Origin: Amoebophrya sp. A120
Taxonomy: Eukaryota > Protista > Dinoflagellata
Length of the DNA: 64,000 bases
NCBI GenBank assembly: GCA_905178155.1
Contig: CAJINV010000002.1
Span: forward strand, 8,575,224 to 8,639,223
Reading direction: 5' to 3'
Under the pieces are notes generated by a model. The model was given only the letters and a program-made list of their open reading frames with translations, had not been told where the DNA came from and searched no databases. Each line of letters opens with the position of its first letter. The first letter of the stretch is position 1. Positions 2,142 through 52,231 of this stretch are shown piece by piece. A program made the translations under genes and the position numbers.

Positions 2142-3489
2142 TTAACGCGCAAGCGCGTCTTTCACCCGCTCTATTCTCGAACTCAACTTTTGCTTCCTCT
2201 CCGCATTTCCACCTTCACTTGTTATCGTATTCAGTTTTTCCGACAGTTGGTCCAGCACGTGATCCACGAACATTTTCCTCGACACCAGCACGTGCTCCCC
2301 GAAGAAAAACACCACAATGGGGTCCCGGACTTCTTTGTGCGCGCGAGTCAGCGAAGTTTCCGTGAAGAAGACTTGCGTTTCCGTCGCTGAATTCCGCGAG
2401 TCGTCTTGTTCAGGGACCAGGATACCATACGAGACACCGGTCTCTCCTGGAGGGCGCACGGACAAAACATCCTTCACCACACGCAGTGCGTGACTTGCGC
2501 TTGTGATGTGCTGACTCCACAGAATCTCCGGCTGCTCGTTGTGGACTTGTTCCGCCGCACTCGCATTACGCAGGTAAAACTCAACAAATCCGGAGAGTTT
2601 TTTGCCCATCTCCTCCAGGAAAAGGCACTGGTGGTCGACTTTGACGCGTCTATAGTAAATGCGCGGCTCGCCGTCGAGGCCCTGCGACGCATGGTAAGAG
2701 TCCCCCCACAGTAGGTCTACTTCGTCTCCGTCTTTCTTTTGCTCCTCCGTCAGGCTTCTGATTCTCACTAATTTACCCGCTGCTGTCTTCATTTTTTATC
2801 ATTTCCTGTCCGATTTTTTCTACTCGCTTGGCGACATCGTCGACTTGTTCTTCGCGTGCCGCGTCCGAGTCCTCGTGGTTCCCTCCGCTCGTCGGAGATG
2901 CTGCCAGCAGAGAGGCCGCGGGAGGCCTGGACCGAATCGGAGTTCTTGTTCGTGATCGAGACCGCGAACCGCCTGCGGGTCGCTGTTCAGCACGCCCATG
3001 ACCACGACCTGCTAGAACGCCGGCTGCAGGCCGCGGTGGAGCCGCGCGCGCGCCGGGAAAGGCGATTGTCATGAGATCAACATGCTCCTCTTCGGACGGC
3101 GGACTCGCAGGCGTAGCTCCTGCTTCGTCTGGATGTGAATCAGAATCTTCAGACTCCGAAGACTCGGTCTGGCTGTTTAGGCTGATTGAAGAGAGGCTTT
3201 TGCTATGACCATGACCAGCGCTTCTTCCTCTAGCATGCGCGGTCTCGTCCTCCGTACGACCGGGAAGGCGATCACCTAAGAACCCCGGCGAGTCTGAGTC
3301 ATCTCTGAAAGACGACTCCGCGATGCTCAGCGAGCCGGTACGTCGTGCCCGCTTTTCCTTCGCCGGGCCACCGAGTCCTGGCCAAGTTCCGGCAGGTGAC
3401 CAAACCGAACATTTCAACGCCTGCGCCGACTCGATGAAACAACTTTTTGTCAATTGAGACACCACAAGAAGGAGCGTCGTCCTCGTCAT
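2142..3489 (-). CDS. Hypothetical protein; two overlapping ORFs offset by one frame near 2760-2795
   Basis: ORFs 2773-3489 and 2142-2792 read as one protein-like sequence (Ser/Arg/acidic region then a globular region). No recognised domain; ends uncertain. Confidence 0.4.
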
Positions 3490-12276: not shown

Positions 12277-15200
12277 TCATTCCAGGCTCCCGACGTCCTG
12301 CATCGCCAACGGCGCCAGGATTGCCCACAACGACAACAACCCCACTGTACTGCGGCCGAGCTTGTGAATCTTCGCCGGCTGCTCCGCGGCGTTTTCCGCA
12401 TTCTTGTCTTTTTTCACGGGCTTCGGCGGCGCCTCCTTGTAGATTGCGTTGGCCAATTGCAGTGTGGATTGCGGCAGAATGGAGGCGATTAACGGGCTTG
12501 AATTGAACAGAGACGGCTGCTCACCACTTCCGAGAAAATCGTTTTCTGCGTCTTCCTCTCCAGTGCCCGCTGTGAAACTCCCGAGCCCATTCCTCCCCAT
12601 TCCCGCACGCCCACAAGCGGTCGGCACGGTGGAACTTCCGGTCGTGACAAGGGCTGGAAGTCGGTCCGCTTCCACCTGGCCGATGGTCGTCATCTGCACC
12701 CCTCGAGCGGTGATCAATGCCTTCGAGGTTTTCTGGAACATCACACCCAGGTCGGGCAGTCGCTGCTTCGGGCCGTACAGCATGTGCTGGAGATGCAAGC
12801 CGAAGAGTAAATTCTGGTCAGCGTATTGCTGACTGATGTCCACTAGGTCGAGTTTCATCTTCGAAGTCGTGACATCTACTTCTTGTTTGTTCGTCGCTTT
12901 AATGTTTGCTGCGGCAGTGTCGCTACTTCCACCCTGACTGTGCTGTTCCGGCGCTCCTGCTGCAGACGCAGTTCTTATATTACCGTCCGCCCCCGCCGCC
13001 GGTCCTGCACTCATTCCACTCAAAGAGAACCCCTCCTCCCCGATGTTGCCGCAGAGCCACAGCAGCATCTTGACGTGCAACAGCGTCCACTTTCGCTTCA
13101 CGAACACGTCCAAGAACTGCTTCACTTTGAAGAGCTCCGCGAGTTTGGAAAATTCCGTGTGAATGTCGACCAGCGGGCGCCAATAGCGGACGTGTTTCTC
13201 CAGGCTTTTCGGCGACCGGCCAGCGGCGGCGGACGAGGATGACGCGGTGTAGTTGTTGACCATAGGATCCTTTTTCGACGTCCCGAAAAAGTTGTAATTG
13301 TACTTGTCGTGGACAGCAACAGTCGGATCATTTCTGCTATTCGCGGACCCTGTAGAAGTTGTTCTGGACGGAGTTGTGGCTCCACCACCTGCACCATGCT
13401 TTGCTCCGCTATAATGTGCTGTGGTAGTTCCCGCGCCATTCGCTGTCGATTCCTTCGACGACGAAGCCCCGGAAGTAGATCCCCCCTTGTTCTTCGAGGG
13501 CTTCTTCTCCGCGGGCTCCTGGCCGAGGAGTTCTTGGTTGATCTGGTCTTGGAGGTCAAAACCAAAGTCCGACTCGTCGTCCTTCGTCGTTCCGGGCGTG
13601 GACTCCCCAGCACCGTACTGATCGGTAGAAATGTTATGATTTCCATTCGCCAAAAGTGAACTAGAATTCGGGTTGTTCGTTAATTGCTCGTCTTTTCCTA
13701 AAAGTTTGTCCAAATAACTGTCGATCTCCTTGTCGAGCACCTTCCCGTCGTCGATGTTGTTGAAAAAATCCTCCTCCTCCGCTTCCAAAATCGCCGAGGA
13801 GAATTCGAAATTGTCAAAGTGGTGGTCGAAGTACCCAGTTTCGATCAACTTCTCGATGTCCGTCTCTTCCAACTTGTGCATCAAAAGTTTCTCTTTGCTG
13901 TTGCGAACCACCAAATCTTCGTAATTGATGCTGTGTTCACCGGAAGATCCGCCTCCGGAGGACTGAAACAAATGCTGCGCCAATCGGCTATCTGGGTTAG
14001 ATAAAGACTGTTGAACTGTTTTTGAAGATGTCGCTTGTTGTGTTGCTTCGCCTTTCAGTTTCTCTTTGTGGTGAGAGCTGCTGTTATTTTTTGTGGAAAA
14101 GGACCCGTCCTTATTTTTCTTGCTGTTGTCTCTACTGTCAGTGGCCCCGTAGTACCCCTCGTACTCCTGTTTGTACTGGTACTCGTCGATTATCTTCTTC
14201 ATCTTCTTCCCCTCGTAATACACCGAGTCGGAATATTCCCCCCACAAATTCCACTCCGATTTTAGCTCCTTCCGCCACCTGCTCTCCTGTCGCAGCGCGT
14301 TGTGCTTGAAGCTGTTCACTTCGAACGCGGAATTTCTGCCGTTGTCGAGAAACTGGTGGTGCTTGTTTTTGTGGTTGCTCGGTTTGTGCTTGTGGTAGTG
14401 GTCACAGTGAACAGAGTACGGGTCTTCCTTCTGGGTTGCGGAAACATACTCCATGTACTGGTTTCTTCTCTGCAACCACTGCGCTCCGAAAAACTCCAAC
14501 AGGCGGGAGGGGTCGCGGGGCTGAGGTGTGTGTGTGTGTGTGGAGTGGAAATCGGGAAGATAGAAAACACATTTTGGAGAAAAGATAGAATTAGAAACCT
14601 CGAGTACAAGATCCGTGGCGTGATGATTCGTCGAAAGTGAAATATGAATGCTACTGAACAGTCTAGTTAAAGAAAAGGCATGATCAACATGAAAAGGAAC
14701 TGAAATCATGCGAAACTCTGCTTGTGCTGAATCACGGAGAAGTAAAATGGTATAAAAGCAATACGGGCTTCCCGGCCTGATGTCGGTCCTTGGGTGACTT
14801 CAGGCCCAAGGGTTTTTCGTAGTGCTCGTAGTAGAATTCGCTCAGCATTTGGAAGGCCTGGCCGAAGTTTCGGCAGTTTGGGACGGCCGCAGTACTGTCT
14901 GCCGGCTTGCCGTTTCCGATCCCGTGGCCACTCGCGCCCGTGAAAGCGGTGCCCGGAGTGCCTAGAGAGTGCCAGTCGCTGCTGCCCCCGTCCGCGCTGC
15001 AGCCGAAATTGAGGTATTCGACGATGGACGCCTTGTCTTTCTGCATTCGGTACAAGAGCGCCGGCTGGTTGTTGTTCACCGACATGCTGTCCTCGAAGTG
15101 TTTCAGGAACGCGATAACCGTGAAGGGGAGGAGGGAAAACGCTTTCTGTGATTCGGGACACAATTCTCGATTCTGCACGTCCGGGAAGCAGATATTTCGG

Positions 15201-18200
15201 AGCAGAAGCTGCGACTCCTTCTTTTTCATCTGCAGGCACCAGTCGAAGGACTCCCACTGAGTAATCTGCTGCACAGCGGTACCTGCGGCGCTGTTCTCCT
15301 TTTCCGCCCCGTCTTTGTCTTTCGCCGCTGTGCCGTTCACGGTGGTAATTGCCGCGGAATCTGATTCCGAGCCCGTGTTCGCTCCTGCATTGGCACCTCC
15401 ACCAGCTGGAGCCGCGGCTAAACTTCGGCCGGAGCTGATGTTTGCCCAGCGGCCACCGTCGTACTTCCCGGGAACTCCGTGTGTGAACTTCATCTCCTCC
15501 TTCTTCAGCCGCCGCTCACTCATCGACGTGATGGAGGTCAAAAGCACTTTCACCAAGCACTGCTTTGGCCAGTAGTCTAAACACACCCGCTGGAGCGCGT
15601 ACAGTCGGCGGTTGTCGATGGAAACGAGCTTTTTGTAGGGACAAAAGTGGTTGCTCGCGCAGCTGTCGCTGGTCACATCTTGGTCCATCAAAAGAACCCG
15701 GATCGAGGGGAACGGTGTGTAGAGTAAGTGCACCGAATTCGCCAGCGAGCCGGACTGCTTCGCCTCGAAATTCGTGATCTTTCCCTTGTCGCCCACCACG
15801 GTCGACCGGTTTTCCGCTTTTGCTTGCAAATAGTTGTTCTGAATCTGCTCCTGCTTCCGGTCCTGTTCCTCCGACTCGGTTCCCGAAGAAGCGACCAGTT
15901 GTGCTGGGGGCTGCTGGTTCGTCAGCAAGTGCGGGTTCCACAACACCTGTGGCCCGTTGGTCCCGAACGCCAACTCATTCCAGGAGCAGACGCCGGAGGA
16001 CTTCCCCCCGCAAAGCGATACTTCCTCGGACCAAATGGACTGAATCACTTCCTCCACCGGACCTTTCCCGTGGAAGAACGGGTGGATTTCCCGCTGCGAA
16101 AAGTGGATGTGCAAGGGGTTGATCCATCGCTCCTCCCAATTTAGCCTTTCGTTTCCTAAATTCTGGATTTCCTCGGTAACGAACTTGCAGAAAAACCCAA
16201 GGTCGGGTTGATTCACCAGGGTGCGTAGGTAGAAACCGACCGCGTAGCTCAAATAGAAATGCTTGGCGTCCTGGGAAAGAAAGTTTTCCCCCACGGTAGT
16301 TTGTTTCCACGAGTTAAAGCTGTTCTTTGTCAGCAACAGATTCTGGTTCTGGTTATACAAGCTATCTCCCCCGGCGGAACTCGGAGGTCGGGGCGGATTG
16401 CTTGATGTATTTCTCTGGTTGGTGGACGCCATTGTGGCCCGCCGGGAATCCTCATCCTCGAACTCGAGTGCGGTGCCGTAACTGGACACAGTCGTGCACG
16501 AGCCAAACGGAGCAGTCGAAGTCGAAGAGTTGTTTGCTCTTTGCAGTGTGCTGCCCGTAGTACTTGAATCATTGTGTTCCACCTGCTGCGGCGCACAGCT
16601 CCCCTGTGCATCAGTCGGCGGGGAGGGCGGAAGGGGAGGGAGCGGCGGTAGGGGGTTAGTACCTGTCGAGGAGGTTCGCTCTGCTGATATGCTGCCTTGC
16701 TGTGCAGCAGCATCTGTTTGCTGCTGCTGCTGCGCGCCTCCAGCAGCGGTATCTTTGCTACTGACCGTGTTGTGTCGCGTCAAGTAGGTCTCTTCGTCCA
16801 GGAGATCCTGCAATTGCTTCAGGTAAGGGTCCATCTGGGATTTTTCCGCGTCAGCCAGCAAATTCTCAACCACGGGACAGCGATTCATCTGTAAACGCAG
16901 CAGTGTCGAGAAAACGGATCCGAACTGCCCAAGAGCGGAGGTAGATGATGCTTTTGCGGTGGACATGCAGCCCTTGCTATTAGTTTGTCCTATTGTGTTG
17001 CTCTTCACGAAGTCGTCGACGCGTACGAAAAATTTGTCTCCGGTCCTCCGAACTGCGGTCATTTTCGGCAACTTATTGAGAATCTTGTTCAACACCAAAG
17101 TTGCGGGCTTGGGTTTGTCGAAAGAGCTATAGTGACTTGTCTCTTCGTGTTTTGGGGAAGGCGTTTTTGGTTTCGTCTTCTGTTCAAAGAGCGGCAGCGG
17201 GCCAACGATCTGTCCATCGAAATCAGACACAAACTCGAAGCACGCAGTCGGAAGCAGTGTCTGGTTGCTGGAACTCTGTACCGTTTTGTTGTTTTTCGTG
17301 TCGTGTTTATTGTCTCTTCCCGCAGCCGCCCCGCCGGCCGTCTGAGCGGTCGCGGCCTGTTGTCCGGCAACAGAAGTGTCGGTATAGTTCTGCTTCTCAT
17401 ATTCGTGATACGGATTGTACCGGATGTGCGGTTGCGGAGTCTTGTCAGACGCCGCTGCATTGTGCGCCTGCACCTCCTTCTCCGTCGATTGTGCAGCCGG
17501 CGCGTGCTTCTTGTTGCTATTGTGCTGCTGGTACAGCGCGCTCCAGTCCTGCTCTTGTTCATACTGAACAAGATTCTGGTGTTTAACGTTCGCGTTATTA
17601 ACCACATTATTTCTCTGCTGTTGGTTCGCTGCAACTGGTTGCTGGTAGTACTGGTCGCTCTCCTCGCCGAGTTCGTACCGAATATTGTTGTACTTCTTTC
17701 CACCGCCACCGTTCGCAGTCTGCTGGTGTCCAGAACCAGCTGCACCTAAGTGGTACTTACTTGCTTCCACCGGATGCTCGTCGGGCTCCGAGTCGCTACC
17801 CGGGTCGATAATCATGTCCCCGTAACGAAACTTCTTGCCGTCGTTGGTTTTGAAATTAAACAGCGGGTTTTGGGAGTCGTCTGCCTGCTGTAGTTCTGCG
17901 ATCGTCACGTCTGCCATGATATCCTCGAAATTAGTCGCGGAGGGGGCGGCATTTTTCGTTTCTTCTTCGGCCGATGTTGAGGGTGCCTGTTTAACATTTC
18001 CTCCTGCTTTGTTCGTCTGCTTCGGATCAAGCTCCACTGGCGGAGCAACGCTACTCTTCCCTTGCGTTGCAGATGTTCCGGGCAACACACCGCCAACCTG
18101 CACGAGACTGCCTCCCTTTGCGAGCAGCATTTTCTGCCCCTTTTCGGTCAGATGCGACGGATGAACCACCATTGCTGGAACAGCCGCACTACTGCCGGGC

Positions 18201-19297
18201 GGTCCACCGACGTCTCCCTTGGGTTGATGTACTGATCCCTTGGCTTGGCTACCCACACTGGCGGTCGGCGACATCAACTGTGCGCTAGTTTGTCCTGCTC
18301 CCCCCGTCGGCGGCGGCCCGGTGGGTGGCGGCTGCATCGGTGCAGCAGCAGCAGCAGCGCCGCCCTTTCCAAGGTGCTGAAAGTGAAGATCTGCTGGTTG
18401 GTGATACGGGGGGCCTCCTGCGGCAGCTGTGGCCGGAATATCGAATCCACCTGCGGGCGGCTGCATGATGGGCGCACCAGCAGGAGCTCCTCCGGGTGGT
18501 CCCACCCCCGCCCCTGGGAGATGCTGATACGCAGGTGGGAGCTGGCCCACCAAGGCGGGCCCACCCGCCCCCGGCGCAGGTGCAGCCGGAGCGGCCATGA
18601 GCGGGATGCCGCCCTTTATCATCATCGGCGGACCCGGGGCCGCAATGCCGGCGCCGGGCAGGAACATCGCCGCGCCGGGCGCCGGCGCGCCCGCGGGCGG
18701 CAGGGCGGCCCCAGCCGCGCCCCCCTTCATCATCGCCATCTGTGCGGCCGTAGACGAGCCCTTCATCAGGAGCTGTGCGGGCGAAATCTTGGTCGGCATG
18801 TTCGCCGGGTTCATGTCCTGCACCTGTTCCGCCCCGGTGTTCGCCTTCTTGTTTTTCGACTTCGATTTTTTGGACAGCTGCACCGCTGCCGCTTTTTGCT
18901 GCATGGACAGGTGTTGCTGGGGCTGCTGTTGAGAAGATTGCTGCTGTACAACTAGCGCAGGAGCAGCTCCAGCTCCTCCCGGAGCAGGTTGTTGGGGTTG
19001 TTGTACTAGTTGCTGAGCTGCAGCGGCCTGCTGCTGCAGCTCCTTCTGTTCCACGTGTTGCGCGTACGCCGCAATATCGTTCATGCTGCTGGGTTTCTTG
19101 AAGGCCGCGACGAAAATTTGACTCACCGGCATGTTCGGAAAGTAGTCCCGGATCGGCGCAAACGGGCACCCGGGGTCCGGCTGGACCCGGAGCTCGTGGG
19201 GGAGAAAGCCCGCCCCGTACCACTCCCGCATCTGACTTTGGAGAAAGGGGCCCTGGACCCGCCCCTTTCTGTCGATATACCGCCACTCGTTGGACAT
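12277..19297 (-). CDS. Large GYF-domain protein (~2,260 aa) with internal ParB/Srx-like segment
   Basis: N-terminal WRYIDRKGRVQGPFLQSQMREWYGAGFL is a GYF signature. ORFs 14732-19366 and 12277-14709 are joined in phase 0 by GT-AG intron 14521-14764. Confidence 0.8.
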
Positions 19298-20505
19298 TGT
19301 TGTGTTGATATTTTTCAATTCAAAAAGTATATAATTGTCGCGGTTCTTAATGTTGGCCGGAAACAAGGAGCATTTCGGGTAATGGACCGGAAGGAAGAAG
19401 TACGAGCAACTTCTACTTTTTTTCAGATCGTTATTAAATCACAACTTCTACGGCTTCGAAGAGGGTCGTCTCGTGCGCTATGCGTACCTATAATTGTTCG
19501 CTACTTTCATGTTTGATGTAGTTCATCATCTTTCTCATCATGATAACGCCATCTAGTCTAGTAAGGTTGTCAATCACGACAAAAATGTAAATCATGATGT
19601 GTTGTGCTACTATGTGGTGACAGAGTAGAAAGCGCGGCGTAGGAATTGTCGCGCTATGAAAAAGTAGAGAAGCGTCGCTGTGTTGTACTGCCAGCTATTC
19701 CAAGTAGGGATTTGGATTTCCATTTCAATTGCTTTGATGATGATCATGTCGCTTTTCATGTTGAGAAATAATGTATGAGAAAACTTCTACTTACAGCTGC
19801 TGGTGCTGTGGCATGTATCGATCTCGACCACTGCTTGTACTATGCGCGGATGGCTTATCGAAAAGATCCATTGTGTTGGAATAACGTGGCTTCCCAGCGC
19901 GTGGTTGGTGAGCTTGATTCTCCCCCTCCGAACGCAGGGGAACGAAGCGAACAACAGTTATTTGTCAGGCACATATGGAAAGTGCGAAATCGTGCGATCT
20001 GGGTAGCAGGAGTGTAAAATCTACTCCTTGCAGTACGAGTACTCGTCGCGTCTGAAAATAAGCAGGTAGACAACCACTCGCAAGTGTTCTTCGGGGATCA
20101 AGTTGATGTAAGGTGTCTATAACAATGTGCTCGCCCTCGGAAAATATGAGATTCCTTCACAAGAGCCAGAACGAGGTAACAGGTCCTCGCTTCTCTGCTG
20201 CGCACGCTATGGTCAGTACCACCGCGATCGATGGGCAGCATCTCGATAGGGAGGTCCCTGGAAAAAAGTGTAGCAAGTTAGTCCTTGTCGTGGAGGACGC
20301 ACGATTCCTCGTTTCAGCGCAGAAGCCATGAACTGAACGGGCCACAGCTGTGAAGGAATACAGTGCCGGTGCCGGTGCTCGTGCTTTTTGAAAAAATGTC
20401 GCCGGTAGTTGAGAGACTGCGAGAAGGAAGACGAGTTACGGTTGATGAGGGGACATCTGAATTATTCGTCCTTGGGTAACAACACATTGCTCTGGTGCTG
20501 GTGGA

Positions 20506-22725
20506 CTACTCCAACGAATGTCCTTCCCCTTCGAACACCATGGTCATTTCAACTTGTTTATCATACTGAAAAGCGCCCCGCCCACAAAAGTGAAAGTTTC
20601 CACCAACGATTGCGTCGCATGAGCAGATCGGCTTCACTGTGACTGTGCTGCTTTCCTGCGAACGCGATGAATTCACTACCATGCATGGAAAATTCCTGAT
20701 GCTGAAGCTGATACATGTACTACATCCAAGGCCGCAGCAAATGACAGACTCTATAAAGGAACCTCCTTTTGTACTACAGAAACTACACGCTTCCCTTCTA
20801 GGGTTGTAGGGGCACTTCTCACTTGGATACTTTTGCTTCTTGTTCCCGCCGGCGGCTGGTTTTTCGTAACCCTCTTTGCTCATCATGTTCCCCGTGTTGT
20901 ACCCGTACGGAGGCTCCTCCCGCACCCCGCCCGGTATTCTTTTCGATATCCAGGGCGTGTCGTCGCTCGCGTCGGACATCATGCTGGAGTCCAAGTCCCG
21001 GGGCGAAACCATCGCGTTGTCGCGGAGCTGGTCTAACCGTGCCGGCTTCCCGTCCAGCCGCTGGCCGGCGCCGCCGAACACACGGGAGTTGTTCGTGGAG
21101 GCGATGCTGCTGGCCGCGTCCATCATGTCCGAGTCGCGCGGACTGGGTTCCATGTTGGAGTTTCCGAACGTTTTGTCGGGGGAAGAGAACTGATTCAGGT
21201 CGGTGCTACCTGATGAAAGTTCAATAGCAGGAGGTACTAGATTCATTTGATTTCATGTTCATTTGATATACGTGGTCTATAAAGCTTCATACACATACAT
21301 CACTACTATCAATCTACTAGGTGGTGTTTCGATTGCTGCAATTATGCTCGAAAAATGCGACTGTTCTATCAGCAGGAGCAAGTGCAGACGCAAAGGACCA
21401 CTACCTGTCGCTCCTCCGCCTAGCGGCAAGGACGGTGGTACTTGCGGCTCCACGTAGTCCTTTGGTGGCGCGAAGTCCACGTTCACGTCCGTTTCGATCA
21501 CACAGATCGCGTTGGCGGGCTTGCACTCCATTATCTCGATTTCATACCGCTTCTTGTTGTATGTAATGCTGATACCTGAGTCAAAGCGACAGGTCTGAAT
21601 TTCGTCACCGTGCAATCGATTTTTTTTACAACGATTTTGGGCTAATATATAATGCTGGGCACAAAGACAGTTGCTCGCAGCAGGTGAGATATAACCTGCA
21701 CAGCCACAAAAAGGAAGAGGCTTGCAGAGCAATAGATGCAACACGGTTAGACCGAAATCGAAAAAGCACAAACTCAAATCAAAACTGTATGTATACAATC
21801 GCCGACTGTCAAGGTCGCGAATCCTCGCAGGCTGTTCTCCAGGACGGTTTTTGGATTGTGAATCGACAAAAAATCGCTGGTTACTGGCCGGAGTTTGACG
21901 AATTTTCCCTTTGGCAGGGAGGTGTTCATGATCCTTATCAAGTCCCCCTCGGATATGACTTGCTCAACCGTTACAATCTCAAACGTTGCAATAGAGTCTG
22001 CGATTTGTCTTGCATGATGAGCATGACAGACTCGCAGAGCGTTCCACTTTCTGCAATACAAATTTCGCCAGATTGTAGTGGGGTTTGGGGCTCCGGAGCT
22101 TGTCATGCGCAATCCTATAAGAGTTGGCATGGCTAGATCATGCACTCTTGCATCACAGATTTCCATATTCTATTGTAACGTTTGACATTGTAACACCTGA
22201 GAGGGTTATATCGGACAACAACAGATTCTGCATCATCCAATAAGGAAGGTAACACGTTCCCTCCTCAGCGACAAATTCCTGCACGCCGCAGTGGGTGCGG
22301 TGCGTGTTACCGTTGGAAGCCTGTGGATGTTGCATTTCAAAGGAGTTCTATTTGGATCATCTCTAAGCGGTTTTACAGAGATTGTGACACAACAAAAACA
22401 TCAAAATTGCGACATAAAACTCTATCCGGGAGGATTGATGAGGAGGAGCGGGCGACCAGAATCAATTTTTTCCAATCATCTAGTATAATACCTCAAACAG
22501 CATCGGGTAGCTGATGTTGAGACGGGCCAGGTTGTCCAGTGCTGAGCTCGGCAGTATTATCTTGTTTCCCGACTCCAGGTCCTCCCTTCCGGCAAAGCTG
22601 ACCGGGTAGCAGCGGTACTGCACATCGAAGCGGGCGTTCGGATTGTGCATCGCATTTCCAAAAAAGTTCGCGAAGAAACCCCCGCCTCCGGGGTCGCCCC
22701 CGCCGCCGGGGCCGCGGTTGAACAT
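20506..22725 (-). CDS. UFD1: Ubiquitin fusion degradation protein 1
   Basis: [67 protein letters not shown]-like [14 protein letters not shown] introns 22321-22491, 21576-21796, 21210-21404 and one non-canonical intron. 3' exon structure uncertain. Confidence 0.95.
21954..22210 (-). mobile_element. IR-bounded introner-like non-canonical intron in UFD1 (257 bp + 5-bp direct repeat)
   Basis: TAT...ATA ends, ~42-bp imperfect IR, tcgga at 21949-21953 and 22211-22215. Removal restores conserved [13 protein letters not shown]. Confidence 0.92.
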
Positions 22726-23679
22726 AGTGGGTTTCTTCCCGGTATTCTTGATCAACGGGTGCTATTTGCGGAAACCCAAGTGAGTAAAAGTTGAAAATCA
22801 CAATCCTACTTGAAGATGATGTTGATGTTCATATGATATACTTACATAACACTTGATTCTGCGAGGCCTGCGCGGGCGTGCATTATTGCGTTCAAGTTTT
22901 GTAGGTTATTGAGGTCCTGAATGTTCCACAACATCAACGATTTGCAGTGCACCGAGACGAGTGACAGTGAATCTATCTTCATCAAAACACCGACGTAGAC
23001 CTAGAAAAGACAAGTTTTCATCTGTGACTAAATTTCTTACTCTTCTTGGCGCTAGAGAAAGGTACTTACGCGACCGTCACTGAGGAAAATATTGATAGAT
23101 ATCCCTAGAAAACAAGCGCGCTTACGTCCCCCGTTCGTTGTATAAGGTACAGCTATTGCTGCAGATCAATTTTTTGCAGCGTCAACTAACTATTCAAACT
23201 CGTAATCCATGGTCGGAGGTCGAAGGAGTGAACTTTGACTTTCCAGATGCATCAACATTTTGCGGCATATAAAAGTTTTGGAGGTAAATCGTGTAGTACC
23301 AGGCACAATATTCTTTTTGTTCCACCACAACTGAAGATTTGGACCCAGATGATAGTTTGCGGTAGAGTTCGTCTTTGTTGTGACCAACGCTGCTGGTACA
23401 TGAGCAGTCCGCGGTTGGTATTGAAGAACACGCTTGATAATTTTTGTCGGTCAGGCGAAAGATGCACAAGCACCAGCCTACGCATGGCACCTGCCGGGCC
23501 CAGGTGGACCACACTGGTTTTGCCTTGCATATTTCGTCTTTTGCGTTTTTTCCTTTTGCTTTTGTTGTCGCTATGTTTCGTTTATTTTTCATCTTCCTCG
23601 TCCAACATTTCATTGCAAACCACCACCATTTACAGCATGATTCGCAGGGGCGTTCCCGTTGTGTTGACAAGAAACATAA

Positions 23680-23780
23680 AACTCGCTGAAAATCAGCGCA
23701 CGGAAACCGAAACAAAACAGCTGGCATAAGCATATGCCCACTGTCTGTCTCTGTCTGTGCGCGTCACACTTTTTTGTAGT
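23680..23780 (-). promoter_or_regulatory. Candidate SECIS element of the SelT mRNA (atypical)
   Basis: Minus strand GUGAC-gcgcac...gugcgc-UGAU: tandem GA/AG quartet closing a long hairpin, ~350 nt after the SelT stop. Lacks the usual unpaired AA. Confidence 0.55.
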
Positions 23781-24120
23781 CATGCTTGTCAAAGGATATA
23801 CTGACGAAAATTCCCCGGAAGATGCCGCCAGCATGAGTCAGCACTGCCTCCTTATCTGTATTCTCAAAGGGAGATCTCCACTACAAGTCGTCTCTGGCGT
23901 GCTGTTGCTGTATTGCTGATGTGATAGCGCATCATGAAATACGAATGTCGTCAGAAGAGATTCACTTCTGGGGCGGTGAGGGGTACGGGTAGTTGGGGTA
24001 GAAGTACTATCCCTTGTTGTCGCTTTCATATCCGCTACCGGGGTAGAGGTAGACGTAGCAGGATTATTAGGAGGGGAAATTCCAGTTCTGGTAGAAAGAC
24101 TGCAGAGCCGCCATCTCACA

Positions 24121-25632
24121 CTACGGCACTGCGCTCTGCATCAACTCCAGGCCAACCCTATGAATTGCAAAAGCATCGTACTAGTATAAATCGCATGACA
24201 AATTTGCTCAGCATCATCATCATCATTGAGACGGACCCCCTGTGGTCGTCCTCACGGTGTCGTCTTGGCCCTAGGCTCAGCATGAGAAATGTAATTTGTA
24301 ATGCTGTTTTACCTTGGGATGGGAATTTGTAATGCATGACTGCGATTACTACGAGTACGATACTTTTGCACAGGATAAACCCGTTTACACCCGTAGAAGA
24401 TGTCGTGGTAGTTTGGCATGCGGTATGGATTGTAAAAATGTCTGGGTCTGGAAGGTTGGAACTTGTCACGCGAAGTCTGGATAGTACAGAAATTTGTGTT
24501 GCATGATTACCAAAAGGCGTCCACGTTTGAACAAGTGTAGCGGCAGTTTGTCATGCGGATAGACATGATAGAGACTTCACAGAACCTGTCATGCTAAGTC
24601 CTGCATTGCAGACCTCTTGGGGCATGCAAAATATGCATGACAAATTCGCATTCTTCCAGACCCAGACATTTTTACATTTGATATGCGGTGGTTATTTGCC
24701 AGACTCGACCATGCTACCTTGTCCTGGTAGTAAATCTCAAACGCACCGGTTTGCAGAAAGGCGGACGCGGCTACGTTTCCGAAAAGCCAGATAACTGTTG
24801 TGGTGTGTAGATAATTAACTGACGACTGAATTTCTTCATTGTCAAGATGCATACGCAAAAGATGAGGCGCCACGGTATTTATGCGTGTGTTTTTATTCGC
24901 TAGCTTACGAATGTATGAAATGTCGTTCTCGCTTTTGCTTTTATTCCAAGCACGACGTTGCTACGACCATTGCTTTGACATCACAAATCTTCAAATTGAA
25001 TTAAGTACTCATGAAACTGGCCATCTTGTTTCCGCTCAGCGCCTGCACCAGGCCCGGTATTGGCAGCTTGAGCATCTTTTCGAACAGCATCTCGCCGGCG
25101 AAGACGAGAAAGAAGAGGGTAAGTTGAAACATCTGGAACACCTGCGCCATGTACTGCCTCGAGGGTGGGACGGGGTAGTTCGCCCCAAGCACCTCGATGT
25201 CGTCACGCGCAGCGCGCTCTAAAATCAGCCGGTGCACCTGTCGAAAGGTGCCCTCGTAAGCTCAGCCGTTGCAGTACATCACGATCACCTGCGGTGGTTT
25301 TTCATGACTTTTGATGCAAAAACGAAGATCCAATTCTGCATGGATGGACAGGAGCACTGGGTGTTCTTGCATATGCAAAAAATAAAAAAGAAAAATCGCG
25401 CGCATGCAAATTAATTCGTAGTCAGATCATGATCACATGTATCACGACCCAGGCACTACGCAATCTTCTTCTTGACGAAAAACGTACGATTCAGTACCTG
25501 ATTATCTGGCATGTTTTTCGGTGATGGATCCCAGTCTGCTTCTGCGGCGCGCAGGTTGGCAACTTGTCCTTGCACAAATTGAGCTAACCCCGCGGCGATG
25601 CAAACCTTGTGTATGAAGTTTTTTTTGTTCAT
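24121..25632 (-). CDS. SELENOT: Selenoprotein T (Rdx family), ~199 aa, Sec at UGA 25262-25264
   Basis: Signal-peptide-like N-terminus, VIVMYCNG-U-AY (CxxU), GANYP, hydrophobic segment, QTGAFEIY. GT-AG introns 25289-25497 and 24795-25008 plus two non-canonical introns give a 600-nt CDS. Confidence 0.93.
24159..24377 (-). mobile_element. IR-bounded introner-like intron in SelT (219 bp + 5-bp direct repeat); same family as 44397-44542
   Basis: tatgaattgcaaaagcatcgtact...agtacgatacttttgcacaggata; aaccc at 24154-24158 and 24378-24382. Removal gives CKRVGLELMQSAVP*. Confidence 0.88.
24424..24683 (-). mobile_element. IR-bounded introner-like intron in SelT (260 bp + 5-bp direct repeat); same family as 59628-59889
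   Basis: Perfect 24-bp IR tgtaaaaatgtctgggtctggaag inside TAT...ATA ends; tgcgg at 24419-24423 and 24684-24688. Removal gives WSSLANNHRMPNYHDIF. Confidence 0.92.
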
Positions 25633-26791
25633 GCAAGGACGAGCAAGAACGTCGCTGTAGTCCTCAAGCATGCAATGACAGAGATGCTGCAGCTGCTGGA
25701 TTCAACACCAAAATGCGCGGCCAAGTATCGCAATCTCAAGCTAAATGTAGAAGAATAGTAGAACGCTCAGAGTGTCGTGGAATTATACCATGACCATGTA
25801 AAACGGCATCAAGCTCGCTTCTGGCTGTGGTGTAAGTGGCTTTGATGACGCTGTGGCCGGTCGTGTTGCGGACGCCGGCGGTCCGGCTCCTGCAGCAGGG
25901 GCCCGCTCGGGCCCGGGTTCGGCCGTCATGGGTTGCCGTGATTTCGACTTCTACTCGTTCTTGTCGTTTCCGTTCGAACGATTGCTACACTGTAAAATAA
26001 TCTAATATGGGTTATTCGAAACTTTTTTTGGGGGGGATGGGGTGGTGTGTATTGAAGTTGGGTCGCGGACCTGGTTCTGGTTGGCATCAAACATTCGCAC
26101 GGCGGAGAAAAGAAGACTATGATTGACTTGATGCATATTTATTTTTCGAAGTACGATTTGCTGATGCGATCGAGAAAAATTAAAAAGCGATCAGCGAGCG
26201 TATCCTTGATCTTTTTCACGTCGATCATTGCGATCCAATCGAAAATATTTCTCATACAGAAGCAAATATTGACAAAAGTTATCAAAAAGTACTACTTTGC
26301 ATGAGGGCTACAAAAGGTAGACGATACGCCGTCTTGTTTTTTACACTCTTTACTATCGCAAAATACATTATACCGCCCCTTTTACATTTTAATTTTCCTT
26401 GCTTATTCACCATGCCACCATGATTGAACACTCTGCTATACTTTATCCTCCGTTTTCAACCACCCACTTGAAGCACAACGGTATTATGTGCGGATGTGCA
26501 ATCAATCTTGTCAAAATGTTCTTGTCAAAACCAATCAGTTTGAAAAGAAAACAGCACGGCGTGGTGAAGAACATAATTTTTGCGCATAAGTATGTAGAGC
26601 CTCACAAAAACTAACTCATGTCAACAACCAGCATCAAACTCAAACATAAACACCCCCAGTGGTTCTTATGTCTGGACTTGAGGCTGGTGCTAGCGACAAG
26701 CAATTCGACGTCCAATACGACAGTATGAACAAACATAAAAATGGATACGCCTCTCTATAATCCGCCAAGAGCAAGACTTCCCCCTCCTGGC

Positions 26792-31516: not shown

Positions 31517-33981
31517 TTACGCCTTGGATTTCTTCTTTTTCTTCTTCTCACCCTCTTCTGCAGTAGCGACCGTCGTTTCAGCTTCGGCAACCGGCTCCGC
31601 AACTGCACCGGACTTCGACTTCTTTTTCTTTTTCGGTGCCTCCTCTGCTGGTGCGGTGTTTTCTGCAGCAGCCTCCTCTGTCTTCTGCTTCTTTGCGGCT
31701 GGCTCGGCTTCTTCGCCAGCTGCTTCCTCTTCTGCAGCGCGCTTCTTGTTCTTCTTTTTCTTTTTCTTCTCACCCTCCGCCTCTGTTGCGTTTACTGCTT
31801 CTTTCGATGCTGATGTTGCACTGGCACCCTGCTTGGCAAGTTCCGCAATTTCCTCTTGGACCGCCAGGAGCGCCTCTTTCATGACATCCTGGTTCTTTCT
31901 GGGCTTGACACCCTCGGTCAAGAACGTGAGTCGGTCCTCCACCTGCGTCTTCATCCTTTCGCCGTACAGTTTCGTGCCGTGTTCCGAGAACGCATCGATG
32001 CGGGAGGCAATACTGCACTTGTTCGCGAGATACCGGGAGATCCTTCCCTTGTTTTTCTGCTGGGCACGGCCGATGAAGGAACTGTGGTAGAGGAGCCCGT
32101 ACTTCGGTGTGTTACCCTTCGTCTTCAAAGCCCGGAAAAGCGCTTTTTCGGCGCCTGGAATTAATTTGGGTAAGACATTGGAATGAAGCACCGGTAGATT
32201 TGTGCGTTGATGTAGTCGTGGTTCCCAAAACGATGCAAAAAAACCCTGAAAATCGGGGTTTCTTGAACACAAAAATTGCGAAAAACAAAATTTCTTCGTG
32301 AAATACCGAGGATCTGCACCGTACTGGCAGGGTACTTTGCCAAGTTCGTCAGGGATCCCGCATGGGAGATGAGTCGCGCGCCAACGTGCTCACCGACGAG
32401 GGAAGCCAGATTCGGGGCGACGATGTCCATTTTCCGCTTCAAGTAATACGTCAACATCTGTCGCATGGCAGCCAGTTCGACGACCTAAATTGAGTTTGTG
32501 TTTGCATGTGTGAGGGGTCATGGCAAAAAAACATGCATACTCATACACATGATGTTGAGTACAACCTTCTCGATCGTGTCCCGTGCTAGTTGCGTGTTTC
32601 TTCACAAAAAACCCAAGTCGCGGCATTCGCTTTCGCATTCGAGGATATTCTCATGACAACATTGTTTGGTAAGTACCTGTGTCGCGAAGTTCTCAATGTT
32701 GTGCATGTCCATTTCGACGATGTCTTGGCCCATGGAAATTTGCAGTGCCTTGACAATTTCGTCCGCGATCTCTTCGCTGCCGCAAACTTCTACCAGTTTC
32801 GGCTTTTCGTTTTCGTAATCGAAATTCTCCTTGATGCGCAAGACCCGGGCAACCTGTTGTGATGGATTTTCGGTGCGGTTGAAAACGGAACCGCTCTTCG
32901 GCTCGGTAATGCCACCGCGGCCATGGCAAAGTTTTACAATCGACATCGAATGAACAGACAGGCACAGGCTGCATAAGAAAAGAAAGGAGCATAATCTATC
33001 ACTATCATGCAGATGCAGTATGAGAATGATAAATCTAATTTCGTGTAGTATCAGTACCTTTGCGTACACCACGTTATCGTTGACGATCTTGGTCAGTTCC
33101 GGGAAGTGCCAAGCGTACCACTCCCGCACCCGCATGGCGAAGGTATTGATGTTTTTGTCGAGGTTGTCCAAAATAGAGATGACGTTCATGATCGGCTTGT
33201 CCTGTTTTTTGTCGAGCGAATCGCAATTGATTTTTGATTTTCGTTTGATACACCACATACTCATTGTCCCTGTGTCGCGATAGTACATACAAAAAAAGCA
33301 TCAAAGATCGTCCATTCTACCTGACGATTTGGGTCCAGCTGCATCTTGTCTCGGCTGTAGCAGTGCGCCAAACCGCACCGTGCCTTTTGCAGATCCTCAT
33401 CCTTCAGATCTTTGATGAACTTCGGGAAGTGCATCAGGCACCCGCGCAGCAACTCCCGCACCGGCTGGCCGGCGTTGCAGACGAATTTGTCCTTCAACGC
33501 CTTTCCGATGTCCGCGTCGTAAACTCCGAGTGTGTAGCTGTATTAGGCAGATAATTCTTGGTGTCCATTTTTGCAACATCTTGCGCAAAAATCAACCGCA
33601 TTTGAATACTGTTATTCTCAGGAAAAATTTATTTCACAAGCTTCGCTGTAGTTCATTCGGAAAAAAAAAAACGGGACTCATCACGAACAAAATTTCGCCT
33701 CTCTCTTACGTGCTCTTCTTCTTTGCGCCGGGCAGGTTCATTTCGAGGAAGTTTTCCAGCACGGTGGTGACCTCGCCGTTGGCGATCGCCTTGCACTCCG
33801 TCAACGCCGCCTCGGCGGATTCGAAGGGCTGGAACGCGACCAGCTTTGCCATCTGGCGAAACTGCTCAAACGTCGCCATGGCTTCCTGGGCCTTGTCGGC
33901 ATCCTTCGCAATCTCCTCGCATTCGAGCTTCTGGAACAGCGCGTAGCCGTTCGCGTCCTCGTGCAGAAGGAATTGATTCAT
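31517..33981 (-). CDS. NOP56: Nucleolar protein 56 (box C/D snoRNP), multi-exon
   Basis: [88 protein letters not shown], Lys-rich tail. GT-AG introns. Confidence 0.93.
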
Positions 33982-46813: not shown

Positions 46814-49800
46814 CTAGCTGTTGATAAAGTGCATGCGAAATTGTTTCTCCCGGTCCGCCTGTTTTGCCTTCCGTTCGCGCTCGTGCAACACAAAAGCGAC
46901 GAGCAACAGGACAACCAGCAGCAGTAGACACACAAAAAAGATTACGTAGAAGTAACCCGCCGGGTTTACCACCAGCTCGAGCGACCACTCATTTGACGCC
47001 GCGGCGCTCCACACTGAGACTGGACGAGGACGTCTATCGTATCGTGGACTGTCAGGTATCGCCCCTGCTCCTTTCGGCCTTGTTGCCGAAGATGCTGCAG
47101 AATGAGAAAGCCTCATTTCTCTGCTGGTTGTTTGCTCCAATGCTGGTGTGCCATGATCTTGATCGGATACAACCGCGGATGATGAAAAAGGGATGATCAC
47201 TGCCACGGCCGAGTTGGGCACGATCTGCGACCCCTCGAAGCGACGTGTGAATCCGCGCGCGTTGGGGAGGAAAGGAAGACACCCAATTTCGAAGTCGTCA
47301 ATGTAACTGTTCGAGTCCTTTAAGCCCAAATCTAGAAACGGCAGTTGCAAGCTACCAAAGTGATTGCTGGTCCCAAGTAAAGTCGTGCGGGTCTGCTTCC
47401 GTTCCAGGTTGCGCGGATTCAGATAGCCCAACTGGAGCGTGCAGGTGAACGGAACTATATTCCGAGTGGTGTAAATCGACGAAGTTGCACCAGCGGCGGC
47501 GCCAGGTCGCGCTGTCGGTCCTGGGTGCACCACCATCTGCTGGTCCGACGGCTCGGGCACGGACAGGTATGGCGTTCTCAAACGTTACATTGTCAGCTGT
47601 TACATGATTTGTCAAGCAAAATTGCCTTCAGAATCGACACCATCAAGCTGCTTCGCATGACAAATTCCCAGAGGGCCAAACAGGCTGATAATCGGCGCCA
47701 AATCTGTCATGCAAGATGCGCGCGATCCCTCCTATCACTTTTGCTATTCTTGCATCACGAATTCATGCAACAGTTGAGAATGTAACGTTTGAGAACGCCA
47801 TAACAGGAGCGCTTGCGTTTGGATGTGGAACGAAATTTTCGCCGGGTTGTAGCAGAAAACAAAGTATTTGTACATACCCACTGCTGCAGCAGTACGAAGC
47901 GTTGTCCCAGTAGCATCATTCCTTGGAGTAAGCTCGAACGCCCAAGCAAGGATTTGCACCCTGCGACCCAAGTCCCCGTAGAATGCCGCGCCGCTGTAAT
48001 CACCCTTAGGAAGGGAAAACTTTTGGAAAACCTTTCTGTGCAGTACGTTTTGGTGTTGGGCGTAGCTTGAAGATGATCGACCAGACCCTTCGGTAGTATC
48101 GCTTTCTGCTGGCTGCTCCGACTGCTCCTCTTCGTTACCAATTAGGAGGAAGGTGGTGCATTGGAACGAATCCTGAGCTCCTGGTTTATTCCTGGCACTC
48201 GTGTTTTCGCTATGAGCGTCGCCTGTCGACGTCATACTGCAGTAGGTGTACATGATATCGAGCTTGCCATCTTGATTCAAGTCACCCAGACGAAGCCAGC
48301 GGTCGTTAGAGAGCAAGCCATATTCAACACTTCTCCTTCCTGAAGCTGCAACATTTTGTCTGCGCTTTCCATGTTGTCTCTCATCCTCTCGCGCGTGAAC
48401 GGAGATCGGAATACGACGCCAACACGGATTTCTTCCCGAGCGTTCTTGTAACTCTGAATGCTGAGCAGGTGGCACGCGCACAGAGGCCTCCCCATCGCCC
48501 TCTGGGTGTTGTTCCGAAGCTTCCGCGAGGACATCATTGTTCTGATTCTGAAGAACATTCCCCCTGTCTCTTTCGATCTGGTTGCTTTGCCCATGATGAT
48601 GGTGCCCGCCGGCTGTGCAAGTGAATTCCTCAACAATAAGGGCAGGTTCCCTGTCAACAATCTCAGGCAACGGTGCATCCATGAGGGCAGCAGGAGTTTC
48701 TGCTTCATGATCTTCACCCGCAGACCCTACCAAGTCCTCTTGTGTAGCGGCTTGTTGACTGTTCCGTGGCATTTTCGCCCTCCGCGTACCAGAAGTAGAA
48801 GTTGAAAGGCACACAAGCTGCGTCTTCCCGGTACCAAACAAATCAGCAAAGGAAAACTGCGAATTTGCGTCTTCCGCTGAAGTGATTTCGGTTTCGCGCA
48901 GTTCGCGCGCAGGAGCGATTGAGTCGTATCCCCATTCTTTCTTTCGCAACCAGACAAAGCGGGTTCTTTGCTCTACTCCAGCAGGGGCAACACTGGTTGC
49001 GCTCTCATTGCCGGCTCCATCGGGAGCAGCCCCAAGAATCGGTGTGCTGACAAAAACCCATAATTGCACCACTGCTGCGCTGTTCGGCTTCATTTCGCCA
49101 TGTGCTCCCCGACCTTCGATCTTCTGAGTACCCTGTTGCCTTGACGTAATGTCCACGGGCACAATCAGTTCCGGAGTGTTGTCTCCGTCTAGATCTGCGA
49201 GGGACGGGGAAAAATGCTTTCTCACGGAAAAGACCACGCCATCTGTCTGCGCTTTCCATCCGGTTTGCAGCAGGAACTTCCCCAGGGGAAACTCCTGGTC
49301 AGCGGGAAAAAGGATGAGCCGGACAGCTGTTGCGGCAGTACTGCGGTGATCCGGACCTGTGCTGGTACCACTTCTCAAATCGCTAATTCGCACGCGGTCC
49401 GCCAACAAGAGATCCAGGCGTCCGTCGAAGTTCAAATCTACCAAAAATGGTTCGGAATCAGACGCGATCTCATCAAGTGTTTTCTCGTAGTCGCGCGTAC
49501 TGCTTCTCTCGTAGCTTGCGGCGTAGCCATAATTCTGGGGCTCCGCGCTTGCCCGAGAAATTGGGGGCTTTTGCCGCAGGTAGACCTGTGTGAGAAAAGA
49601 GGATGACTGCGAGGGAGCAGTAGATGAGACGCTGCTGGATCTAGCAGGACTAGCTCCTGATGAGGATTCTTGATGCGCACTGTTTGACGATCGTGGCTCG
49701 CTTTTGTTCCAGATCACGAGCACGTCCGGCAGGCCATCGAGATTGAGATCTGCGTGCGAGATCACCCGGACGGGCTTCATACTCCCATTCTCCACGTCGG

Positions 49801-50782
49801 CAGAAAAATCCCTTGGTGTCTCAAGCGGCAAAGCCAGCCGGTGCTGGCTACTTGGCCTGTAGTTCGTGCGAACGTGTGCAATGCCATGTGGCGTGGTCGA
49901 TCCAGCTGCTATATCGCTTTCTGTACCGTGTAACCCAGTTTCTGTAGTCTGCTGCTGCTGCGGTCTGATTTCGTCCGACGCCCCGTCTCGTCCGTCTTGC
50001 ACCACGTAGTTATCGTCGTCATCTACGTGCATGTTGGACGACGTGAAGAACAAAATCGAGTAGAAGCTGTCTGCTAATGCTTCTCCGCCGCGTCCTCGTG
50101 CTGGCGCTGCTGCGAATGAGCTTCCAGCAGCGTTGTCTCCTTCTAGTTGGGCATGATTATCTGCATCGCTTGTTCTACTAATAATGCGCTCGTTATTACG
50201 ACGATTCCTCGCCCGGCTGCGCGAAAAAGAGTTTTCATTTCTCGCAATAACCGTGGCTTCCATCTCCATTTTGTTGGAATTCGTGTTCTGCTGTGCCCCG
50301 CCTGTCGAGCTGCTAGGTGGTGCCGTTCTTGCGCTGGCGCTGAACCCGTAACTCAGCGGCGGACTGGGAAAGCCGGGTAATGTCCGCGAAAGCTCGAGCC
50401 CGGGGAGCAATCGCGGGACCACAGCCGCAGGATTGCGGTCAAGTGATCCGTCATAATTTGGGCTCCCATTGGAATCGGAAACCGCTGGTGGGAGATGACC
50501 GACATCCTGGGGGGAAGCTATCGGTGTCAGTGAGGCTCCTTGGTTTCGGTTTCCACCTGGTTCACTAGGTCGCGCATTGGGATCATTACCGGAACCAAAT
50601 CCATTGTCCTGCTCTTCCCCGGTATTTCCAAAAGAGAGACAAGGTCGCAGGCCCAGTAGGATATACGAATACAACATTCCCACAAGAAGTCTCCGCACGT
50701 GAAAAAACCTCCAGCATCTCATGAGCCCTATCTTTTGGCGCTGGCTTGTCGGGCCGTGCAGGAGTTGGAGTTCCTGCGCCAT
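46814..50782 (-). CDS. ITFG1/TIP (LINKIN)-like FG-GAP membrane protein, ~1,240 aa
   Basis: N-terminal hydrophobic segment; ADLNLDGLPDV, DLNFDGRLDL, ADLDGDNTPEL, GDLNQDGKLDI repeats; LGL..SNSYID, IVPNS; C-terminal TM and short charged tail. Confidence 0.8.
47568..47802 (-). mobile_element. IR-bounded introner-like intron (235 bp + 5-bp direct repeat)
   Basis: ~40-bp IR beginning tatggcgttctcaaacgttacatt; acagg at 47563-47567 and 47803-47807. Removal joins QALL to SVPEP. Confidence 0.92.
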
Positions 50783-51329
50783 TTTTGCAGTAGACGCTAG
50801 CAGACTTCTACTTTTTTGAGTGCTGGTCGTCCTCCACCTTCTCTATGTACGTACTTTTACGCCTTGTGTTTGAAGCACACGCCCGAGCTCTAGAGAGCTC
50901 ACTTTGCAATTGCAAACAAGATGGGGAATAATTCACACATGATCAAATCAAAGTGAAACTGCTCCAGCCTTCCACTGACTTCCCGAGACAAAAATGCAAG
51001 TTTTGGAACAAACTACAAGTACGCGACGACAAGCGGAAAACTTTCTTGTGAAGCTAGACAACTCCTCGAAATAAAAACGCATTGCGACGATCTGACGCAC
51101 TACAACTTACAACCATCGGTCTAGAGTAGAACATCAGAGGTTTTCAGAAAAACTGTGCGCCATTTACTCCATGATTGTGTTCTTGATCTTGTTCCGATGT
51201 TGCTTTGCGTAGAGTCTTCTATTGTGCGGTAATCTAATATGTCGCATGATCCGTAGGCACCATTCGCTTTCGACAATACCACGCGCTGTTCTGCACAGAT
51301 ACTGCCAAAATAGAAATGGACCAACAACA

Positions 51330-52231
51330 TCAAAACTCGTTTTGTTCCCCCGTGGCTTCCTCCAAGGGCAAGACTTCTACTCTTTCGTTGTCGATCTCGC
51401 ACTGGCCCTCGGGATCGTACACCATCCAAGTGAACGGCTGGTTTACGTCCAGAAACCCGCGCAACTCTTCCACTGCGGCAAAGATCGCTGCGCCCTGCTT
51501 CTTGTTCGACTCGTCCTTGGCGTGGGAGAGGCCGCTCGCGTGCTGCTCCAGGTTGTTGATAGCAGTGCTGATATGGTTATACAGGGTGTCCCTTGCGGGC
51601 TTTTCCGCCCCCTGGATCTCGAATTCCGCCTCGGGAATGGAGACTAGCGCGGGGTACGCTGCGAACACGAACGTGTTTTGGAGTAGGTCATCCCCGGTCT
51701 CGATCTTAAATTTTAGTCTGCGGCCCTCCTTGCGCTCCTTCGGGGTTATTTTGAATACCTCCTTACCGGTGTCGGGATTAGTCCTGGAGTTTTGAAGAAA
51801 TGCGAGATTGAATCTGACGGAAATTACAGTCGCAATCGTGCAAGAAGAGTCTGAGAAATTGACCTTGTGGACAAAATAACGAGAGACTCAACAATGCAAA
51901 AAAGAAATTCTCTAGCATCGCTATACCACACGGTGCAGTTAGGCATTTGGTGCTTCATAAACTCCAAAAATGTCCCGCCAAGTGCGTCTTCAAATTCGTC
52001 CGAGTCTGCGTAGCCCAGGTCGTTGAGTAAATAGAACTCGATAGACTCTACTGGTAAGAACTCAACACCATCCCCAAGCGTTGAAACGGAAAAGAAAAGT
52101 TGCTCCACCTCCGCAATAACTCGGGTGGCTTCCTGCTTCGTCACCGTTTGCGGATTCAATCGCTTGTCGTGCTCTATTTGCAGATCTTCCTGCTCCGCAT
52201 GGATTGCGGGATCGGATATGTCGATCTTCAT
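51330..52231 (-). CDS. ZPR1 A/B-domain-like protein without zinc finger, ~252 aa
   Basis: GRRLKFKIETGDDL, VSIPEAEFEI, PFTWMVYDPEGQCEI resemble the ZPR1 A/B domain. GT-AG intron 51784-51926. Confidence 0.7.

Follow-up and report, generated by a model that had tools for sequence, protein, structure and literature searches.

Which element of the SelT mRNA of Amoebophrya sp. A120 could direct the insertion of selenocysteine (Sec) at its in-frame UGA codon is the question raised by this locus. The window, that is the whole stretch of 64,000 nucleotides analysed here, carries the gene on its minus strand, and all coordinates are those of the window. An earlier note, made from the sequence alone, had pointed to an unusual hairpin downstream of the gene as a candidate SECIS.

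The SelT gene and its in-frame UGA

Within 22600-26200, the region examined, run X3 yielded one contig of 1366 nt with five splice joints, while run X4, another sample of the same study, gave a spliced contig of 1375 nt reaching 23550. Both are only guessed to be RNA runs, but their splicing shows processed RNA. The coding sequence begins with an ATG at 25929, ends with a TAG stop at 24123-24121 and comprises 237 codons, Sec included. The features of the transcript are as follows.

26029-25787, 25603-25496 and 25286-25009, minus strand: exons of the X3 contig, from the splice joints
24794-24683, 24417-24378 (placed from the joints) and 24153-23570, minus strand: exons of the X3 contig, continued, from the splice joints
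24121-25929, minus strand: SelT coding sequence (SelT/SelW/SelH, Rdx family) in six exons, from the spliced X3 contig, its translation and TIGR02174
25262-25264, minus strand: in-frame UGA in C-N-G-UGA (CxxU), the predicted Sec codon, from the translation; it aligns with C-V-S-UGA of the control contig L001
24418-24682, minus strand: non-canonical, introner-like intron 4, from a joint with AT..AT ends and 31-nt terminal inverted repeats (I1)
24154-24377, minus strand: non-canonical, introner-like intron 5, from a joint and 30-nt terminal inverted repeats (I2); very high copy number in DNA
23550-24120, minus strand: 3′ UTR, an unspliced stretch of about 570 nt; the contigs end at 23570 (X3) and 23550 (X4)

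The joined exons contain a single in-frame UGA, in the context Y-C-N-G-UGA-A-Y. The protein has the CxxU motif and an Rdx domain interrupted by a hydrophobic insert; its two halves match positions 3-38 and 39-65 of the TIGR02174 (SelT/SelW/SelH) profile, each falling below the cut-off on its own. Exon 3 aligns with the CxxU SelT of L001 (E 2e-17, 33% identity) with the UGA in register, and the L001 protein passes the TIGR02174 cut-off. This contig, from a compost-metagenome eukaryote, carries at 2830-3400 on its plus strand an intron-free SelT with C-V-S-UGA, followed about 40 nt past the stop by a canonical AUGA/AA/UGAA SECIS, and was used as a positive control only. A sequence search of PDB found no relative for the SelT locus. 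Run X9, a marine metatranscriptome, contributed one divergent contig (depth 9.8), the loose end of which reads by eye, as the reverse complement, I-I-M-Y-C-N-G-UGA-Q-Y: the UGA is kept and the adjacent codons are changed.

The database protein P0001 ('unnamed protein product [Amoebophrya sp. A120]') corresponds to the C-terminal 108 residues of SelT and is without the N-terminal 129, the CxxU among them. All seven close database relatives (P0001-P0007; A120, A25, Logan and JGI/MMETSP) start downstream of the UGA position, as is expected where gene callers stop at UGA. By its predicted translation, SelT is mis-annotated in both the A120 and the A25 records. UGA is described in PMC6394959 as a general Trp codon in another Amoebophrya strain. 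The same reading is not supported for A120: the seven stop-free frames of at least 500 codons contain 49 TGG codons, four of the seven end at TGA, and none of these four continues for more than 76 codons beyond it (some of the frames may end in introns).

Introns 4 and 5 flank an exon of 40 nt, and the X9 relative shares both joints. Such introns with terminal inverted repeats are as described for Amoebophrya introners in PMC7789003. The upstream gene (27500-26792, minus strand) encodes a terminal EF-hand pair and has a UGA stop, the preceding part being ion-channel-like by eye; other neighbouring genes on the minus strand (14735-19438, 31520-32389, 47747-50842 and 51333-51887) carry GYF, Nop, FG-GAP and ZPR1 domains, and UFD1 starts at 22725. 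Every long frame is on the minus strand, which fits an organisation in unidirectional gene clusters. A tRNA search of the 64-kb window gave none.

A stable hairpin in the 3′ UTR

The spliced contigs of both samples include the hairpin. Its core is 355 nt downstream of the stop codon and 793 nt downstream of the in-frame UGA, and the longer contig continues for 142 nt beyond this core. This bears out the earlier proposal that it belongs to the SelT 3′ UTR; the message does not end before 23780, the X3 and X4 contigs running past the hairpin to 23570 and 23550. Ten reads of run X10 have a poly(T) loose end at 23546, a site within an A-run where internal priming is possible. Runs X10, X11 and X12 gave 31, 8 and 2 reads at the locus, none of them covering the hairpin.

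On the minus strand the element reads GUGAC (23767-23763), a 67-nt interior and UGAU (23695-23692). The interior forms a single hairpin of 28 bp (13 G-C, 11 A-U and 4 G-U) with a UGCU loop, so that the minus-strand hairpin quoted in the earlier note, with its intact UGAN/NGAN quartet and four-nucleotide loop, is indeed present. Counted from the core, six pairs are followed by a CC bulge on the 3′ side, four pairs and a 1x1 A.G loop; above the latter come 12 pairs with one bulged base, a 1x1 loop, six pairs and the UGCU loop. The A.G mismatch, which had been placed about 12 nt above the core, was found at position 11 above the quartet (A23752 against G23708), with a probability of 1.0 of being unpaired. 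The parts are listed below.

23763-23767, minus strand: 5′ half of the candidate SECIS core, G followed by UGAC, from the sequence and the pattern scan
23692-23695, minus strand: 3′ half of the candidate core, UGAU, from the sequence; it fits the KGAW consensus of PMC3753652
23696-23762, minus strand: upper stem (helix II, helix III and loop), from the MFE fold and pair probabilities
23762-23753 with 23707-23696, minus strand: helix II, 10 bp with the CC bulge, from the MFE fold and pair probabilities
23751-23733 with 23728-23709, minus strand: helix III, 18 bp, from the MFE fold and pair probabilities
23732-23729, minus strand: apical loop UGCU, from the MFE fold and pair probabilities
23751-23752, minus strand: AG where AA/AR canonically stands; by prediction A23752 is unpaired and G23751 paired
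23663-23792, minus strand: helix I region, from the sequence and the fold; the proximal AAAG/UUUU (4 bp) is weak, the distal part a predicted 13-bp stem

The fold of 23692-23767 has an energy of -36.4 kcal/mol (z -5.36), and none of 200 shuffles was equally stable; for the longer piece 23670-23790, z is -3.63. The antisense strand of 23692-23767 folds at -29.9 kcal/mol (z -4.58), so the sense strand folds better. Chance is ruled out for the hairpin as such (z -5.4). In the fold ensemble the probability of being unpaired is 1.0 for A23752 and 0.02 for G23751, at both 37 and 20 °C.

The foot of the element is less clear-cut. The 3′ arm of the distal helix I stem is in competition with a downstream UTR hairpin at 23680-23585 of the minus strand (z -3.2; 2 of 200 shuffles as stable). 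A 5-bp mini-hairpin, GCUGA-UUU-UCAGC (23704-23684, minus strand), can form and mask the 3′ half of the quartet, and the unconstrained fold ties this half up in a small CUGA-UUU-UCAG hairpin. To keep the quartet open takes 2.8-3.4 kcal/mol, as compared with 1.9 for the L001 SelT SECIS; the folding model contains no kink-turn energy, and the cost is therefore a caution and not a refutation. The mini-hairpin might represent an on/off conformer.

SECIS consensus, chance and rival explanations

Much of the hairpin agrees with the type II consensus. It lies in a 3′ UTR together with a CxxU Sec UGA, at the distance given above; the UGAC/UGAU quartet sits directly under six Watson-Crick pairs, in agreement with UGAN/KGAW; a purine (G23767) stands 5′ of UGAN; and the first pair of helix II is G-C. 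Helix II, with 10 bp and a 2-nt bulge on the 3′ side, is at the limits of about 10-16 bp and a bending of at most 2. SECISearch3 filters for a helix II of 7-15 bp, a bending of at most 2 and an apical part of no more than 30 nt (PMC3753652), while SECISaln elements have a helix II of 11-16 bp as against 10 here (PMC2647825). The AG stands 11 nt above NUGA, inside the published window of 10-13 (PMC2375036); AA is absent, and only the A is predicted to be unpaired. The apical part is 45 nt long against the limit of 30, and would still be about 35 if helix II were extended to 15 bp. The apical pair and the 3′ GA are 56 nt apart, against 15-39 in PMC2375036. Helix I passes the loose 7-bp pattern test, yet no more than four weak pairs lie next to the core, and another hairpin competes with the distal stem.

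Four SECISearch1 patterns were re-implemented from the supplement of PMC3753652, as an approximation of PatScan and not the program itself. None of the four gave a match on 24120-23500, the hairpin included, whereas the strict pattern recovered the canonical SECIS behind the L001 SelT. Rfam SECIS_1 (RF00031) had no match at E<=10 in the SelT UTR of the window; on the control it scored 25.9 bits (E 0.093), itself under the gathering score of 35. The earlier note had seen no better canonical SECIS by eye and inferred that standard searches would miss the hairpin, and within 24120-23500 the four patterns and Rfam agree with both statements. Its remark that an apical AA is lacking stands as to AA and needs refinement otherwise: AG occupies the AA position, and the loosest SECISearch pattern (AR|CC) accepts AG, the hairpin failing that pattern on apical length only. 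When the apical length alone was raised from 25 to 50 nt, this loose+ pattern had one UTR match, namely the hairpin, with a helix II of 10 and apical AG. A core-agnostic scan of 24120-22760 found two GA/GA hairpins, of which only this one folds closed at the core (NUGA/NGA).

On both strands of the window (128 kb) the relaxed pattern has 346 matches, the hairpin being the most stable. Helix II closes at the core in 11 of them, and only the hairpin reaches -20 kcal/mol or lower (-35.0; runner-up -19.7). Among 1000 dinucleotide shuffles of the UTR a closing match occurred in 75, one at -20 kcal/mol or below and none at -25 or below. The relaxation was picked after the hairpin had been seen, so these chance figures flatter it somewhat. 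More telling than these figures is the fact that the UTR of a selenoprotein gene contains the best match of 128 kb.

Related UTRs were sought elsewhere. In a metagenome scan for orthologous UTRs, 2 of 124 pattern matches were SelT loci, both from one distant compost eukaryote (35% identity), and viral contigs gave no SelT locus among 67 and 6 pattern matches. One match of 26 in genome contigs (L006) was rejected, its frame being that of an unrelated bacterial protein, and three viral matches to a DNA pattern for the helix II feet, with interiors unrelated to the hairpin, were taken as chance. The contig of the X9 relative stops at 24026, short of the hairpin.

The element might be an ordinary stable UTR hairpin with a GA/GA foot by chance, the UGA being recoded otherwise or read as stop. 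It does depart from the consensus in two respects and is missed by the standard models, and the second stable hairpin just downstream (z -3.2) indicates that the end of the UTR is structured anyway. We consider this unlikely all the same, in view of the fact that, of all 128 kb, it is the 0.57-kb UTR of the only recognisable selenoprotein gene that contains the best such element, that 0 of 1000 shuffles equalled it, that AG stands at the right height and that the UGA is conserved in the X9 relative. There is an even smaller chance that the work is done or shared by a neighbouring structure, either as a kink-turn-like hairpin upstream that would itself be the SECIS or through the downstream hairpin supplying the AA-less core with an AAA loop. 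The upstream hairpin (CAGAU at 23858, GGAA) is the second GA/GA candidate, but its core has AGA and not UGA, no AA, AG or CC stands at 10-13 nt, and its z is +0.56. In the downstream hairpin (23680-23585) the apical loop contains AAA and the 3′ side UGAA; this hairpin has no 5′ NUGAN at its foot, however, and its inner stem alone has a z of -0.27. We know of no precedent for a split SECIS.

Slimmest of all appears the prospect that the hairpin derives from an introner or MITE as a decayed inverted repeat. Such elements are abundant in the A120 genome, introns 4 and 5 of SelT are examples, and the antisense strand folds too. Yet DNA run X1 covers the whole UTR at a depth of 43 (one contig, reads of at least 80% identity), whereas the depth at the end of intron 5 is about 200,000. 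The hairpin is matched once in the window and is single-copy at the sensitivity of X1, which makes an introner or MITE unlikely. It is not spliced out, being retained in both contigs, and does not figure among the best 25 (longest) inverted repeats found in the DNA of the region; the local introners have arms of about 30 nt that lie 145-198 nt apart, and not a 4-nt loop. A repeat origin would in any case not exclude SECIS function.

We therefore regard the hairpin as the probable SECIS of the Amoebophrya SelT mRNA (probability about 0.8): a type II (form 2) element whose helix III is overlong and whose apical motif is one predicted unpaired A. In favour of this are its presence in the spliced mRNA, its very stable stem with a UGA/GA quartet at the base, the UGA at the CxxU of SelT that is kept in the divergent X9 relative, its standing as sole relaxed match of the UTR and most stable of 346 with AG at 11 nt, its single copy in DNA, and the better folding of the sense strand. 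A SelT SECIS and a Sec tRNA reported for another Amoebophrya strain (PMC6394959) point the same way. Against it stand the lack of a match to the re-implemented SECISearch patterns or to Rfam SECIS_1 and an apical part beyond the SECISearch3 bound (45 against 30 nt); the description of AAR as essential in mammalian elements (PMC2919729), the G of AG being predicted paired here; the weak, 4-pair proximal helix I and the sequestering of the 3′ core half in the unconstrained fold; and the antisense strand, which also folds well (z -4.6).

Proposed function and relation to known SECIS elements

By analogy with known SECIS elements, SBP2 on the ribosome would bind a kink-turn that the tandem G.A pairs create. 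The A(G), which stands roughly one helical turn higher than the core, would take the place of AAR and be contacted by eEFSec; in this role the A may act alone, or together with the G should the first pair of helix III open transiently. The 18 additional base pairs of helix III would extend away from both contacts and be tolerated, and eEFSec with Sec-tRNA would then read the UGA of CNGU as selenocysteine. In PMC11431864 the apical region is described as recognised by eEFSec, which sequence is needed at the apex being still unclear.

A bolder, rather doubtful proposal is that in A120 the AAR has shrunk to one A in an A.G mismatch within a nearly continuous 28-bp helix, that eEFSec here either reads the SECIS differently from its mammalian counterpart or needs no apical motif, and that a lineage-wide class of syndinian SECIS, along with its selenoproteins, is invisible to SECISearch3, Seblastian and Rfam. 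As a SECIS, the hairpin, in which a single A is unpaired and helix III has 18 bp, would be a natural test of the apical needs of eEFSec and would widen the bounds of SECIS finders; SECIS-led searches in syndinians, which are abundant marine parasites, may under-count selenoproteins. This is one element in one gene, extending the known oddities of protist SelT, and its weight is moderate.

PMC6394959 shows the Sec trait in the genus Amoebophrya: in a different strain it reports a Sec tRNA and a SelT SECIS that SECISaln can detect, which hints that some Amoebophrya SelT SECIS are less odd than the A120 hairpin. The supplementary files of that paper contain no mention of selT, SECIS or seleno, nor does 'selen' occur in the main text of the A25/A120 genome paper. 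In the literature accessible to us we found no SECIS that combines a lone apical A with a helix III of this length; figures and paywalled papers could hold one.

SelT SECIS were type II in every species examined in PMC2647825. With type II (form 2) elements the hairpin shares its UTR site, UGAN/KGAW, the G-C first pair, unbranched helices II and III and the purine before the core. It differs in its helix III, 18 bp as compared with 2-7 bp in a review of type II SECIS (PMC13059024), and in having a 1x1 A.G loop where these elements have unpaired AA. On its sequence and predicted fold it is a variant of the type II SECIS, neither a plain member nor a new architecture, and it is filed as a variant because its apical part lies beyond published bounds (45 nt, 56 nt).

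The earlier suggestion of an undescribed architecture was overstated: Ostreococcus is known to combine a G before the core with a long mini-stem, Dictyostelium offers another long mini-stem, and the AG variant is on record. According to PMC2375036, a G before the core and a long mini-stem are the normal SECIS form in Ostreococcus, SelT being a typical example; long mini-stems also occur in Chlamydomonas, and a deiodinase-like element of Dictyostelium has an 'extremely long mini-stem'. The hairpin has a long mini-stem in common with Ostreococcus tauri, O. lucimarinus and Dictyostelium and, as in Ostreococcus, a G instead of A before the quartet. The search in PMC2375036 demanded that AA or CC stand 10-13 nt above the core with a spacing of 15-39 nt between AA and GA, as compared with AG and 56 nt in the hairpin. 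Apical AA, AG or CC are allowed in PMC1557815, which describes the kinetoplastid SelT SECIS as hard to detect, while AAR is called essential in mammalian SECIS (PMC2919729). Only UGA/GA is invariable, with the exception of GGA/GA in SelT of Toxoplasma and Neospora (PMC2647825, PMC11431864). The parallel drawn earlier with non-AUGA cores of apicomplexans is accordingly not apt, as Toxoplasma and Neospora have GGA/GA and the core here is the usual UGA/GA, its oddity being confined to the upper stem. What the A120 hairpin does share with the SelT SECIS of Kinetoplastida and of Toxoplasma and Neospora, all parasitic protists, is that it defeats the default search.
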